IMG/VR virus record: IMGVR_UViG_3300029517_000099
Strand: one strand, 5' to 3'
DNA: 4,149 bases
Source of the DNA: a virus
Lineage: Duplodnaviria; Heunggongvirae; Uroviricota; Caudoviricetes
In this document: positions 1-4,149 of the stretch, in pieces
Position numbering within the stretch: the stretch's first letter is position 1
Layout of the letters: each line of letters begins with the position of its first letter
Made by a program: the position numbers and the translations under genes
Notes under the pieces: generated by a model
Databases searched by the model: none
Seen by the model: the letters and a program-made list of their open reading frames with translations, nothing else
What the model was told of the DNA's origin: nothing

Positions 1-176
1 AATCAGCGAGTCAGCTTGGGAAGAAATGACCTGCTTATTCGCACCTTCCCTAATAAAATGTATTTCTCTGATATTATGTTTATTTGTATTAGCTCAGACT
101 TGACATCACAGGTTTCGTATATAGAACATCATCAAATCTGTCAGTTTGCTATGAATGAGATATAGTAATTGAAGAG

Positions 177-572
177 CTAACCTCGCATGTCAAAGCCAGA
201 TTTCTGAAAATCTCTGTAGACTTCCGGATTGTTGAAGGCCGGAAATTTGGCTTTATGAGCTGCGGACTTTATCGCTTCGCAATAGGCTTTATCACCGTTA
301 CTGGTAGATATTTTTAACGCCGTGCCATCCTGAGAGAATTCCATATGCAACCTGCATTTTTTCCCTTTCCAGTTATGCGGCTCATCAAGTTTGGCATTAA
401 TTGCAGCTCTGATTCCCCGCGCTTGCGCCCCCCATTCATCCTGATCATCCCAGCGTCCTGAACTGCAACTACCTGTAGCAGTAGTTTTGTGGCAATCTGA
501 AGGGTGTAAAGGTGTGCATCCCGCAACAAAACCGACCCAAAAAGTCAACATAACGATTTTCTTTAATCCCAC
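177..572 (-). CDS. Second, divergent prophage lipoprotein with TolA domain III-like C-terminus (131 aa, GTG start)
   Basis: Strong RBS GAGGAG 6 nt upstream of GTG at 572; signal peptide with lipobox VAGC and Thr at +2. C-terminal region keeps the TolA-III pattern (I-x2-AI, GKxCxL, G...GD-x3-C-x-A, FP, EVY-x-F) but is much more diverged than the upstream paralogue. Confidence 0.75.
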   Translation of the reverse strand: MGLKKIVMLTFWVGFVAGCTPLHPSDCHKTTATGSCSSGRWDDQDEWGAQARGIRAAINAKLDEPHNWKGKKCRLHMEFSQDGTALKISTSNGDKAYCEAIKSAAHKAKFPAFNNPEVYRDFQKSGFDMRG

Positions 573-647
573 TTCTTGCTCCTCAATCCATTAAAATCTC
601 AGCAATAGTAGTTGTTACGTCCGCCACTGGCTCAGAGCTGACTATCC

Positions 648-659
648 GCTAAATTTAGC
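648..659. promoter_or_regulatory. Perfect 12-bp palindrome GCTAAATTTAGC between the two lipoprotein genes (candidate operator)
   Basis: Exact dyad symmetry at 648-659, flanked by CACTG / CAGTG inverted pentamers (626-630 and 662-666); lies about 75 nt upstream of the second lipoprotein start. Confidence 0.25.
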
Positions 660-722
660 TCAGTGCCGTAGCTGTGTCAGAACAAACCTAAGCCGAAACC
701 GTTTATTACAAAACAATAAATA

Positions 723-1151
723 TCAGGGTTTAAAATCCAGCACCCCATTTTGAAATACTTTATATACTTCCGGCGAAGGGGGGGCAGGTATATCAGCATT
801 CTTTATCGCATTCATCGCTTCACGACATAAATCGAGGTCTCCACTTTCTCTTTTAACCTCCAGTAGAAGGCCATTCGGGGCCATATGCATTCTCAGTGTA
901 CACTCTTTTCCTGAATACTTACTCGCATCCCCGGACTGTTTTTCGATGGCGCTCTTGATTTGATGGGCATACAGACGGATATCCTCACTAACATCAGAAG
1001 TACGTTCAGATGAACTCACATACTGTGTCTCTATTGCTTTATCGGGGTAATATGATGTACGGTCATGATAATTTGTCGATACAGCATCAGTGCACCCGAT
1101 AATAATCCCACTAATAATCAACGTAAGAATTGATGCGCTACGAAAACCCAT
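723..1151 (-). CDS. Prophage lipoprotein with TolA C-terminal domain III-like fold (142 aa)
   Basis: N-terminal signal peptide with lipobox IIGC and Thr at +2 (predicts outer-membrane sorting). The C-terminal ~85 residues (YAHQIKSAIE...SGKECTLRMHMAPNGLLLEVK...GDLDLCREAMNAIKNADIPAPPSPEVYKVFQNGVLDFKP) align nearly motif-for-motif with my recollection of the E. coli TolA C-terminus, including the terminal LDFKP. RBS GAGG precedes the ATG. Confidence 0.85.
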   Translation of the reverse strand: MGFRSASILTLIISGIIIGCTDAVSTNYHDRTSYYPDKAIETQYVSSSERTSDVSEDIRLYAHQIKSAIEKQSGDASKYSGKECTLRMHMAPNGLLLEVKRESGDLDLCREAMNAIKNADIPAPPSPEVYKVFQNGVLDFKP

Positions 1152-1180
1152 TTTTCCTCACATATGTCATATAGTAAAGG

Positions 1181-1210
1181 ATTATATATACCGTTGTTTT
1201 GGACGCTCAA
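1181..1210 (-). promoter_or_regulatory. Candidate sigma70 promoter for the first TolA-like lipoprotein gene
   Basis: On the minus strand TTGAGC (plus 1205-1210), 18-bp spacer, perfect TATAAT (plus 1181-1186), about 25 nt upstream of the GAGG RBS and ATG at 1151. Confidence 0.45.
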
Positions 1211-1323
1211 ACAGCGAATCAGATCAAATAAAACGCACATTTGTTAACATTTACACAAAGTCTGCGCGGGATATTCTGAAAGAATATCCATAATGTGGAG
1301 AGAATCTATTGAAGTGCATGGTG

Positions 1324-1414
1324 CCGGGTGCCTCCCGGTGAACAAAATGTTCGTGATACCTGTCGGCGACAGAAAAGGTTAATGGTATCACCCCACCGCA
1401 CAGGGGGATTCACC
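1324..1414. other. GC-rich island of nested inverted repeats (candidate structured RNA or protein-binding/recombination site)
   Basis: Within AT-rich non-coding DNA: CCGGG/CCCGG hairpin (1324-1338); outer pair GGTGAA (1337-1342) / TTCACC (1409-1414); inner 8-bp pair GTGATACC (1353-1360) / GGTATCAC (1384-1391) enclosing the palindrome TGTCGgCGACA (1361-1371); CCCC...GGGG hairpin (1391-1406). Confidence 0.3.
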
Positions 1415-1740
1415 ATGCAGGAGTTTTCTTAGCAAACTCACTGCGCGCCCGGCAACTCCCAACCACATAAAATGCGGAGTTTGTGGCATTTATGCATATA
1501 ACTCGCAGGAATTATCTTAAAAAACTGATGTCGATCCGGATTAAAAAGAAGCAGGTCATCATCAGATGACTGGAAAAAAGGAAAACAAAAAATACTCATC
1601 ATACAGTTTTGATTGCAGGGATGAGCCTGCTATGCACAATATGCAGAATATAAGCAAGATAAAAATATGCAGGCATATTATTTCGGATTTTGTTATTAAC
1701 ACAACCTTTTTAATAATCATTTGGCATACAATAAACCAGC

Positions 1741-2037: not shown

Positions 2038-2113
2038 CAGAAAGACCAGTTGCCCAACTAGCAGCATTCTCCCCTGCTTTCCTGACGTAAAAAAACCGCA
2101 TTAAGCGGTTTTT
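2038..2113 (+). ncRNA. Candidate ~75-nt small RNA running from the extended -10 promoter to the bidirectional terminator
   Basis: Predicted start about 7 nt after the -10; transcript contains a short internal hairpin (AGCAG...CTGCT, 2060-2078) and ends in the terminator hairpin plus U-tract. It would be antisense to the leader of the minus-strand late transcript. Purely sequence-based. Confidence 0.2.
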
Positions 2114-2118
2114 TTACG
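2086..2118. terminator. Bidirectional rho-independent terminator (tR'-like)
   Basis: Perfect inverted repeat CGTAAAAAAACCGC / ATTAA loop / GCGGTTTTTTTACG. The GC core stem is flanked by a 7-A tract on one side and a 7-T tract on the other, giving a U-tract on either strand. Confidence 0.75.
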
Positions 2119-2195: not shown

Positions 2196-2738
2196 TCAAG
2201 CCATTTTCTCAGCAAATGATTCACGCATGGGAATATATAGGGCATACTCAGCAACAGCTAACCAATTAGCAATCCGTTTTTCGCATGTGCTAAAACACCA
2301 CTCTGGGTGTGCATCATTTAGCAATTCAGCCATTTTGCGCTTAGTCATCCCCCGCCCTTCATAGCGTTGCCGGAGAATGCAAATCAATCCTGGATGCTCT
2401 GCCAGCACCTCACTTATGACTCGATCAATACATAACGCCTCTGCATCAGTACAATGCGCCAGCCAGCTCTTTTGCTTGCCGTTGATCATCTCTCGCAAAA
2501 ACGCTTCCAGCTCAGCTTTCTCTATTCCCGCTTTTTTCATTCTGCGCAGGGCTTCATTGATGGCTGTTTTCGTCAATTTTTTGGATGCCAACAACTGATT
2601 GAACATATTTCCTGACCTGCCACCGCCAATATACGACCAGCGCCCCCACATACGCAGTTTGCCCTGAATCCAGACACTTTCCAGCGTGGCGAGACGAAGG
2701 TGTTCTCCGCTTTTTCCTGTATTCGTTGGGTAAATCAC
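2196..2738 (-). CDS. Late-gene antitermination protein Q-like (P22 gp23 / Phage_antitermQ family), about 180 aa from a GTG start
   Basis: Strong RBS AAGGAGGG 7 nt upstream of GTG at 2738, which overlaps the TGA stop of the upstream gene (GTGA). Translation carries a WGxW motif (LRMWGRWSY) and a Y-x-G-x-GMT-x3-MA segment recalled from P22 gene 23-type antiterminators. Position is immediately upstream of a short spacer plus intrinsic terminator, the canonical Q-pR'-tR' arrangement. The track's ATG at 2858 would overlap the preceding gene by 124 nt and lacks an RBS, so GTG is preferred. Confidence 0.7.
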   Translation of the reverse strand: MIYPTNTGKSGEHLRLATLESVWIQGKLRMWGRWSYIGGGRSGNMFNQLLASKKLTKTAINEALRRMKKAGIEKAELEAFLREMINGKQKSWLAHCTDAEALCIDRVISEVLAEHPGLICILRQRYEGRGMTKRKMAELLNDAHPEWCFSTCEKRIANWLAVAEYALYIPMRESFAEKMA

Positions 2739-3624: not shown

Positions 3625-3682
3625 TTCTCAATCTCTCGATGGCGCAGTGCAGCAGATGCCAGTTGTTCAGGCTGACGTATAA

Positions 3683-3710
3683 AGTATAAATAAACTGGTT
3701 CCAGTGTAAA
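3683..3710 (-). promoter_or_regulatory. Candidate sigma70 promoter for the minus-strand nin-like/Q operon
   Basis: On the minus strand TTTACA (plus 3705-3710), 16-bp spacer, TATACT (plus 3683-3688), about 50 nt upstream of the ATG at 3624. AT-rich context, so it could be a chance match. Confidence 0.35.
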
Positions 3711-3746
3711 GCCCCCACATTGATGGAATAAAAATCAAACAATAGA

Positions 3747-3775
3747 TTGCTGGGATAAAATACAACGCTTATTAT
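3747..3775 (+). promoter_or_regulatory. Candidate plus-strand sigma70 promoter upstream of the small ORF
   Basis: TTGCTG (3747-3752), 17-bp spacer, TATTAT (3770-3775). AT-rich context makes a chance match plausible. Confidence 0.2.
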
Positions 3776-3898
3776 TAAAAGCGGTTAGACAAATTAAATT
3801 TTAATGTTATGCAAATTTGTCAGATCACCATAATATCTCATTTAAAAACCGCTGAAATAACAACCCTATCAGGGTTAATCATATTAAGGTGAGTAAAT

Positions 3899-3985
3899 AT
3901 GGAAAACAACAAATCTGCACATTACGTTCCTTTTTTATCTGTAATACTTTTTGTTTTATGCTGTGCGTGGGCATTATTTTTATAA
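3899..3985 (+). CDS. Candidate small hydrophobic membrane peptide (28 aa: MENNKSAHYVPFLSVILFVLCCAWALFL)
   Basis: ATG at 3899 preceded by a good SD (AAGGTGAG, 3886-3893); polar N-terminus followed by a single predicted transmembrane helix; lies in an AT-rich region, divergent from the phage operon. A perfect hairpin AACCCT-atc-AGGGTT (3862-3876) sits just upstream of the RBS. No homology was established. Confidence 0.3.
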   Translation: MENNKSAHYVPFLSVILFVLCCAWALFL

Positions 3986-4149
3986 AAATATTTACAGATG
4001 AAGTAAACCCGCCAATCAGGTTAACTGTGGCTGCGTTGAGGATGCATAATACATCAGAGGTTGCGGGGATTTCTCCCATAAGCGCTAACTTAAGGGTTGA
4101 ACCATCTGAAGAATGCGACGCCTCGGTGCCTCGTTAAGACGATGCCTCG

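Follow-up and report, generated by a model that had tools for sequence, protein, structure and literature searches.

What would a prophage gain from two genes that each encode a copy of the same domain of a host protein, the C-terminal domain III of TolA (TolA-III)? The question is raised by a stretch of 4,149 nucleotides from a Caudoviricetes virus (IMG/VR record IMGVR_UViG_3300029517_000099), referred to here at its full length as the window, in which all genes lie on the minus strand. Two neighbouring genes, copy 1 (723..1151) and copy 2 (177..572), encode predicted lipoproteins that end in a TolA-III domain. The answer set out below is that both encode outer-membrane-tethered decoys intercepting Tol-dependent bacteriocins and the filamentous-phage protein g3p, a reading that we regard as quite possible though a little short of probable. 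By sequence and by fold, the domain that has been copied is exactly the one that these invaders parasitise.

An earlier note on this DNA, written from the letters alone, had proposed that both proteins resemble TolA-III, and profile and structure searches bear this out. Against the Pfam family PF06519 (TolA C-terminal; gathering threshold 25 bits) copy 1 scores 78 bits (E 6e-22) and copy 2 scores 54.6 bits (E 1e-14), and comparison with the solved E. coli TolA-III chains using phmmer gives E-values of 9e-27 and 5e-9, respectively. The AlphaFold2 (AF2) model of copy 1 has 2x9a_B as its best PDB match in Foldseek, with a template modelling (TM) score of 0.96 and a root mean squared deviation (rmsd) of 0.7 Å; that of copy 2 best matches 3qdp (TM 0.89, rmsd 1.1 Å; TM scores normalised to the target). 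The top PDB matches of both models are all TolA-III, and among them are complexes with g3p and with colicin A (1tol, 2x9a and 3qdr). Both cysteines of the TolA disulfide (E. coli C363-C388) are kept in the two copies and are invariant in 21 aligned family members. The TolA-III identity of both proteins is far beyond chance.

The coding sequence of copy 1 starts with ATG and specifies 142 residues plus a stop codon; the exact protein is present in a public collection, in a cluster of 520 members. Residues 1-20 (1092..1151) constitute a signal peptide, MGFRSASILTLIISGIIIGC followed by TD, which consists of a basic n-region (MGFR...), a hydrophobic core and a lipobox (IIGC) ending at Cys20, with Thr at +2 and Asp at +3. 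The lipobox is kept in 33 of the 46 database sequences of this family, the remainder being fragments or frameshifted. Residues 21-50 (1002..1091) are fast-evolving and predicted to be disordered, with a predicted local distance difference test (pLDDT) score below 50, and the model suggests that they form a tether; the non-synonymous rate (dN) is 0.40 in this linker against 0.12 in the domain. The TolA-III domain then follows (residues 51-142, 726..1001; pLDDT about 90) with 58% identity to E. coli TolA 334-421. The best conserved segment is formed by the C-terminal 22 residues, 15 of which are identical to TolA, and this part of TolA is the face assigned to g3p, ColN and TolB (residue roles: PMC3365938, PMC7066135). 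The colicin A strand is also retained (LLEVKR, against LLDIKP in TolA), together with two of the three cation-pi lysines (K379 and K396). The copy-1 family is narrow, being found in E. coli and Shigella prophages, and variants of 65-90% identity exist without copy 2 in other prophages.

Positions 778-784 of the copy 1 gene form a run of seven G on the plus strand (seven C in the coding strand), at which many database variants are frameshifted (e.g. P0009-P0016), the last 17 residues being swapped for an out-of-frame tail. Phase variation at this tract was considered as a general feature and rejected. The tract has the same length in 79 of 80 IMG/VR prophage loci, which had been picked as the best matches to copy 2, and regular phase variation is therefore unlikely.

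Copy 2, named 'TolA family protein' in the databases (A0A023LDS1_ECOLX), starts with GTG and encodes 131 residues plus a stop codon; the exact protein is found on at least 1000 contigs. The GTG has GAGGAG ahead of it at 584-579 and aligns with the ATG of the MGVKK start of its homologues. The signal peptide (residues 1-19, 516..572) reads MGLKKIVMLTFWVGFVAGC followed by TP, again with a basic n-region (MGLKK...), a hydrophobic core and a lipobox, here VAGC, ending at Cys19 with Thr at +2. Among the matches listed, 118 of 120 proteins of the copy-2 family have a lipobox. The mature N-terminal segment from Cys19 to Gly48 (429..518; CTPLHPSDCHKTTATGSCSSGRWDDQDEWG) contains two extra cysteines, and across the family these 30 residues take the form CxPLHPSxCHKTTAxGSCSSGRWDDQDEWG. 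Residues 1-39 are modelled with low confidence by AF2, and the TolA-III domain (residues 41-131, 180..452) with a pLDDT above 90. The protein is 31% identical to E. coli TolA 334-421; all three cation-pi lysines are replaced, as is much of the C-terminus.

Some further observations concern this second protein. Distant short relatives keep a C-x6-8-C-x8-C pattern in the N-terminal segment. A motif like the TolB box was considered there (SGRWDDQDEWG, set against the box of colicin E9) and discarded, because its Trp spacing is different and the AF2 model has helix 1 beginning in this segment. The annotation of strain LR-64-1 places a frameshift in the copy 2 gene (locus L001, 15128-15491), and the module thus decays in some cryptic prophages at the Rac site.

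Lipoproteins of E. coli that lack Asp at +2, the Lol avoidance signal, are sorted to the outer membrane. With a canonical lipobox and Thr at +2, both window proteins are by this rule predicted to be outer-membrane lipoproteins; relatives have Ala, Ser, Thr or Gly at this position. The two open reading frames (ORFs) and their lipoprotein signals, IIGC and VAGC each followed by Thr rather than Asp, thus stand as the earlier note had drawn them.

Neither protein is TolA. Copy 1 bears the name 'cell envelope integrity protein TolA' from the Prokaryotic Genome Annotation Pipeline (PGAP) because it passes the cut-off of TIGR02794 (72 against 59.45), which copy 2 does not. With NF007065, the equivalog model for TolA, copies 1 and 2 score 102 and 54 bits, both below the cut-off of 213, and only the last 80-100 positions of the model are matched. 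The domain of the window proteins shares its Pfam family, fold and disulfide with TolA-III of the Tol-Pal system (E. coli TolA 334-421; 1TOL, 2X9A, 3QDP/3QDR, 1S62). TolA itself has a membrane anchor (domain I) and a long helical domain II at its N-terminus, whereas the window proteins have a cleavable lipoprotein signal and then a segment of 20-30 residues. They are predicted to be fixed to the opposite membrane, by the lipoprotein signal and a short tether, and to be free of energisation by TolQR. A genuine second TolA was rejected on the same grounds: an inner-membrane anchor and domain II are both missing, the genes lie outside the tolQRA-tolB-pal cluster and the scores fall below the NF007065 cut-off. 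The PGAP name is an over-annotation.

That the proteins are uncharacterised, as had been claimed, agrees with the searches made. TolA and TonB_2 are their only Pfam matches, with no homology to Cor or Llp; they belong to PHROG 5772, labelled 'unknown function', and neither has a match in PADLOC-DB v2 at E <= 0.1 or a fold match among the BFVD viral structures at E <= 0.001. No functional study of them was found in open-access papers and preprints, a scope within which a report in a subscription journal may have been missed.

How such a protein might act can be pictured from the position of its domain. TolA-III would hang just below the outer membrane, on a flexible tether of about 30 residues in copy 1 and on the short conserved cysteine-containing segment in copy 2, and would there serve as a decoy for molecules that need the real, inner-membrane-energised TolA-III to enter. 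It is from the signals, fold and setting of the proteins that we infer this localisation, the binding and the resulting phenotype. The targets would be the N1 domain of g3p, those parts of group A colicins and related bacteriocins (A, N, K and others) that bind TolA and, in addition, the TolB N-terminus that E-type colicins activate and use, as a colicin-TolB complex. Placed at the inner face of the outer membrane, the decoy would stand where incoming ligands first appear. As ligands bound to it would not be coupled to the proton-motive force, TolQR energisation being absent, import would stall, and the lysogen, plasmid host or chromosomal carrier would be tolerant.

In the periplasm, g3p, colicins A and N and the TolB N-terminus all make contact with TolA-III, and TolB relays E-type colicins to TolA (PMC3365938, PMC7066135, PMC6455109). 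The native contact between TolA and TolB is weak (Kd 40-250 µM; PMC7066135), and that between colicin A and TolA is about 1.3 µM (PMC3365938). With the contacts of invaders near 1 µM, a modest amount of decoy could therefore block them without crippling Tol-Pal. Since the colicin A face and the C-terminal face differ between the copies, these probably cover different ligands.

An engineered counterpart is known. In the 1993 work of Levengood-Freyermuth, Click and Webster (J Bacteriol 175:222), an excess of periplasmic TolA-III reportedly made wild-type E. coli tolerant to colicins E1, E2, E3 and A, with no tolerance to the TonB-dependent colicin D; leakiness and sensitivity to deoxycholate are said to have been seen as well. 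There too, free TolA-III was reportedly placed in the periplasm of a tolA+ cell. The engineered protein was an overproduced laboratory construct of native sequence, whereas the window proteins are natural, diverged, mobile, predicted to be lipid-anchored and, as judged from substitution ratios, under purifying selection.

Relatives outside the window show how far this arrangement extends. An exhaustive HMMER search with copy 2 gave 130 representative clusters at 50% identity; 72 of the representatives are 100-170 residues long, and 53 of these 72 have a lipobox. Both families retain a lipobox followed by Thr or Ala at +2. The short lipoprotein versions of TolA-III are a sizeable, unnamed group; for the distant short relatives P0174 and P0188 the gene context is visible on contigs of about 1 kb only.

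On small ColRNAI plasmids of Klebsiella, a 123-residue TolA-III lipoprotein (LTAC followed by K) adjoins a cloacin-like rRNase bacteriocin operon with immunity and lysis genes, from which it is divergently transcribed. Directly after it comes a 121-residue protein made up of a signal peptide and a TonB C-terminal domain (TonB-CTD; Pfam TonB_C 9e-11, PDB TonB 1e-15). The pair is found on about 370 plasmids, mostly small and mobilizable. On K. pneumoniae plasmid p3_020143 (NZ_CP028545.2; locus L006, 5905-6638) the TolA-III gene overlaps the start of the TonB-CTD gene, and a CopG/ParE pair lies nearby. The plasmid lipoprotein is 48% identical to E. coli TolA-III and belongs to a lineage distinct from both window copies. 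Like these it is short and borne on a mobile element; the difference lies in its setting, with a TonB-CTD partner and a link to a bacteriocin operon in place of a prophage late region. In the literature it is mentioned as an annotation only, in a 2019 survey of small E. coli plasmids that lists such a 'tolA' (MOBRNA type 4; PMC6807383).

TolA and TonB are the two hubs of group A and group B bacteriocins, respectively, and both are copied in the Klebsiella pair. As TonB has no role in outer-membrane integrity, import interference is favoured over envelope remodelling, and no other observation argues for it as strongly as this pair on bacteriocin plasmids. It is quite possible, though short of probable, that there is an unrecognised class of 'import-hub decoys' on the mobile elements of Enterobacterales, consisting of exported stand-alone C-terminal domains of TolA (lipid-anchored) and, on bacteriocin plasmids, also of TonB, and giving broad, receptor-independent tolerance.

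Defence genes occur within a few kilobases of TolA-III lipoprotein genes at three other places: Gabija GajA with a UvrD-like partner on a Klebsiella MPF_I plasmid (locus L007, 1-2394), a PARIS AriAB fusion in K. indica (L106, 7320-8948) and NsnA with a HEPN protein in Serratia (L011, 8957-10736).

Copy 2 has close relatives on plasmids, being 88% identical to a gene found on about 600 plasmids of E. coli, Shigella and Salmonella. On I-complex plasmids (IncK2/Z, MPF_I) the homologue lies 67 bp after the relaxase genes nikA-nikB and in the same orientation; on pO157 it is intact beside a truncated nikB, in every O157 plasmid listed (L003, 6003-8523; L005, 1924-4396). The I-complex link is suggestive because these plasmids build pili that serve filamentous phages of the If1 type, and the g3p of such phages binds TolA-III (PDB 2x9a). 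A function in I-type conjugation or in host interaction, be it surface or entry exclusion or serum resistance like that of TraT, Bor and Iss, would also suit a gene so placed behind nikA-nikB, and on a Klebsiella MPF_I plasmid a distant TolA-III lipoprotein has a thioredoxin-fold gene as its neighbour. Mobile elements carry lipoprotein genes in other cases too, lambda with bor and F with traT being precedents. We nevertheless hold such a function to be very improbable: Pfam and PDB fold searches linked the proteins to TraT, Bor, Iss, Cor or Llp neither in sequence nor in fold, the gene is retained on the non-conjugative pO157 and on chromosomes, and the domain is periplasmic in its native setting and not surface-exposed. 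For the decoy reading, the TonB twin on bacteriocin plasmids, the I-complex relaxase operon and the Gabija, PARIS and Nsn neighbours provide indirect support.

The family of copy 2 is much wider than that of copy 1, with 370 clusters at 90% identity. In 31 species representatives, solitary chromosomal genes are 65-89% identical to copy 2, the hosts including Enterobacter, Leclercia, Citrobacter, Klebsiella, Raoultella, Serratia, Pantoea and Rouxiella. The two window genes are not tandem paralogues, as had been supposed. They are 27% identical and of different lineages, copy 2 stemming from the widespread family of plasmids and chromosomes. A local tandem duplication was rejected, since copy 2 is far closer to the plasmid genes (88%) and to chromosomal genes of other genera (78-89%) than to copy 1. 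The pair in the window is one mosaic.

The suggestion of diversifying selection made in the earlier note did not hold either. The ratio of non-synonymous to synonymous rates (dN/dS) is 0.07-0.17 across genera in the copy-2 family and about 0.3 in the copy-1 family (0.12-0.3 in its domain). All pairwise values are below 1, with 0.86 standing apart from the rest, a value for the signal and linker of copy 1 in one close pair and based on 15 changes. These ratios point to strong purifying selection on the copy-2 family. Its mature N-terminal segment has a dN/dS of 0.01-0.08 against 0.06-0.17 in its TolA-III domain, and being more constrained than the domain it is likely to be more than a tether.

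Such constraint, acting also on a cysteine-containing segment that would be superfluous for a simple decoy tether, raises the prospect of an accessory envelope protein. The family would on this account be an outer-membrane paralogue of TolA-III that engages TolB, Pal or another periplasmic partner conditionally, its carriage by phages and plasmids being incidental. The chromosomal genes of many Enterobacter, Leclercia, Citrobacter, Serratia and Raoultella genomes, whose neighbours are mostly housekeeping genes, would fit such a role. Yet the insertion site differs in nearly every genus, the 31 chromosomal loci showing 22 different upstream and 27 different downstream contexts, a pattern expected of accessory genes in horizontal circulation and not of a conserved envelope component; no operon partner is shared among the loci, and the family recurs on plasmids, in prophages and at defence-rich spots. 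We consider an envelope role of this kind distinctly unlikely, and the decoy reading is retained as the preferred one.

The window genes behave as autonomous mobile cargo. A cassette made up of the 3' part of the gene for a small RNA (sRNA) of the STnc100 family, copy 1 and copy 2 (50..1342) is about 99.7% identical among prophages. In 34 of the 80 IMG/VR loci the match to the window covers 50-1342 only, the Q region beyond being different. The right junction at 1342 falls inside STnc100, which seems to be a recombination joint between phage mosaics. The cassette has a GC content of 0.39-0.46, lower than that of the nin/Q genes (0.47-0.53). An intact copy 1 is present in 78 of the 80 loci, and copy 2 is identical in all 80, the loci having been picked by their match to copy 2. 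Matches to the two-gene module of 99% identity or more occur in 776 of 5,426 complete E. coli genomes (about 14%); of 50,697 deposited phage genomes, only 1 has the module. The stretch that forms the window occurs at the Rac site of many E. coli genomes and in phage mEp460_ev081. Its positions 1-49 have matches in some relatives only (mEp460_ev081 and strain B19374), and to the left of position 50 most genomes part from the window and continue into another lysis cassette.

Annotated relatives have a holin gene directly to the left of copy 2, then lysozyme and an Rz-type lysis gene, so the window represents the stretch between late regulator and lysis genes of a lambdoid prophage. A position as cargo behind Q had been foreseen, and it is found: the annotated relatives place the genes between the Q-like gene and the holin, and in other prophages a relative of copy 1 occupies the exact stx slot, in the order Q, tRNA genes, TolA-like gene, nanS-p esterase and holin. 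The slot is thus shared with stx and other cargo between Q and lysis, the window cargo being an envelope lipoprotein and not a secreted toxin.

At the right end of the gene series lie a DUF1367 gene (3624-3025) and ybcO/DUF1364 (3025-2735), followed by the Q-like late-gene regulator (2196..2738), which matches Pfam DUF1133 and, weakly, Phage_antitermQ. RefSeq starts this gene at 2738, giving 180 residues and an ATGA overlap with the ybcO stop codon (L001, 17136-17678). The longest ORF is 2196-2858 on the minus strand (220 residues), which overlaps ybcO by 124 nucleotides and has its Pfam match from residue 41; the 180-residue form is probably the real one. Beyond the gene series, the right end of the window (3650-4149) is AT-rich (GC 0.31-0.35), and the insertion sequences IS1, IS5/ISKpn26 and IS421 are inserted there in several genomes.

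Between the Q-like gene and copy 1 there is about 1 kb without long ORFs. Some 80 nucleotides downstream of the Q-like gene, an A-run, hairpin and T-run (aaaaaaccgc-attaa-gcggttttttt, 2088..2115) was noted by eye, its ACCGC/GCGGT stem being extended by A-T pairs. With the appearance of a bidirectional terminator, it is a candidate tR', but was not among the results of the terminator and promoter scan; the isrK Rfam matches that overlap it are weak and sub-threshold (about 21 bits against 50). A second terminator-like hairpin lies at 1737-1768 on the minus strand (AACCGCCTGTTTAGGCGGTT then CTTTTT), in the non-coding stretch from the Q-like gene to STnc100. The STnc100-family sRNA gene of the prophage (1262..1448, minus strand; Rfam RF02076, 85.5 bits against a gathering score of 47) is immediately upstream of copy 1, an order repeated in locus L080 (114 bits). 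STnc100 has been reported downstream of stx2B in Stx2 phages (PMC12370729).

When the genes would be expressed bears directly on their function. The sigma-70 promoter that had been assigned to them does exist as a site, TTGAGC-18-TATAAT at 1181..1210 on the minus strand, about 30 nucleotides upstream of the copy 1 start, which matches 10 of 12 consensus positions; expression from it is the part that stays unproven, the scan of the window having given 10 sites against 6.6 expected from shuffles. In strain M9 the -10 element is TGTAAT, and in the O22:H8 variant the whole upstream region is different. The scan for intrinsic terminators found none after copy 1, none after copy 2 and none before the holin. 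As no terminator separates the genes from the holin, expression with the late operon is at least as likely as expression from a promoter of their own.

Late expression would suit a dominant-negative modulator of Tol-Pal. Tethered TolA-III made late in the cycle, on the same Q-dependent transcript as holin, endolysin and spanin, would titrate TolB or Pal and loosen the link between outer membrane and peptidoglycan. This would favour vesiculation, speed up lysis or make it more complete, or help phage or bacteriocin to leave the cell. The genes are directly upstream of the holin with no terminator between, in the late-transcribed cargo region that also holds stx; the Klebsiella relatives adjoin a bacteriocin-lysis operon, and copy 1 retains the C-terminal segment assigned to TolB binding. 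The excess of periplasmic TolA-III in the 1993 study reportedly caused leakage. Mutants in tol genes bleb and leak periplasm (PMC6455109). We nonetheless judge this modulator unlikely. The adjoining lysis cassettes are already complete, with holin, lysozyme and an Rz-type gene; the TonB-CTD twin has no link to envelope integrity and lies divergent from the bacteriocin-lysis operon; and the solitary chromosomal genes, under purifying selection in about 30 species, have no lysis context, nor do those in relaxase operons. The affinity between TolA and TolB is weak, so that titration would need high levels.

The decoy reading has its own difficulties. The decoy may be costly, since the 1993 construct reportedly also gave leakiness and sensitivity to deoxycholate. 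Expression may be mainly lytic, the genes lying in a late operon with no terminator before the holin, and protection would then be of little value. The promoter is a consensus match only, and in open-access papers and preprints no experiment or expression report on any member of the group was found. E-type colicins do not bind TolA directly; to block them the decoy must bind TolB, which is also the route to harming the host. Copy 2, at 31% identity, differs from TolA in both known ligand faces, and its ligand could be something else. Several group A colicins still kill E. coli O157:H7 in spite of its pO157 homologue. Finally, the solitary and conserved chromosomal genes of the copy-2 family are also compatible with a housekeeping-like role in the envelope.

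Among known exclusion systems the closest in form are Cor (phi80/N15), Llp (T5) and TraT (F), which are likewise small outer-membrane lipoproteins of prophages and plasmids and keep a competitor from getting past the envelope; Llp has been described as an inner-leaflet lipoprotein binding FhuA. These proteins have unrelated folds and plug an outer-membrane receptor, whereas the window proteins mimic a periplasmic co-receptor and would sequester the ligand of the invader. Superinfection exclusion by g3p uses the same interaction, that of g3p-N1 with TolA-III, but there g3p occupies the TolA of the host; with the window proteins, surplus TolA-III would occupy the incoming g3p. The domain, the database labels, the colicin block by free TolA-III and the existence of exclusion lipoproteins on mobile elements are already known. 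What appears to be undescribed is a natural, mobile and (as predicted) lipid-anchored copy of the co-receptor itself.

TolA-III is the point that connects group A colicins and Ff-type phages to the energy supply of the cell. Natural protection in its known forms works at other points: immunity proteins act at the target of the toxin, and Cor, Llp and TraT at the outer-membrane receptor. If the decoy reading is true, a mobile, membrane-tethered copy of the co-receptor represents a different and very simple strategy. Such genes are common: the two-gene module is carried by E. coli genomes and the copy-2 family by hundreds of plasmids, including pO157 and I-complex resistance plasmids, with related pairs on about 370 Klebsiella plasmids. 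A widespread 'TolA' annotation is corrected as well, as these proteins are not TolA. The strategy would bear on the patterns of colicin and phage sensitivity among natural isolates, on the design of antimicrobials based on colicins and bacteriocins and of hosts for phage display, and on how conjugative plasmids limit the cost of pili that are exploited by phages. Should the wider class of import-hub decoys be real, its carriers would tolerate filamentous phages as well as bacteriocins that depend on Tol or Ton, and the window genes would be its prophage representatives; a secreted TonB-CTD might, speculatively, even affect siderophore-linked drug uptake. Such decoys would be a third mode of protection beside immunity proteins and receptor blockers.

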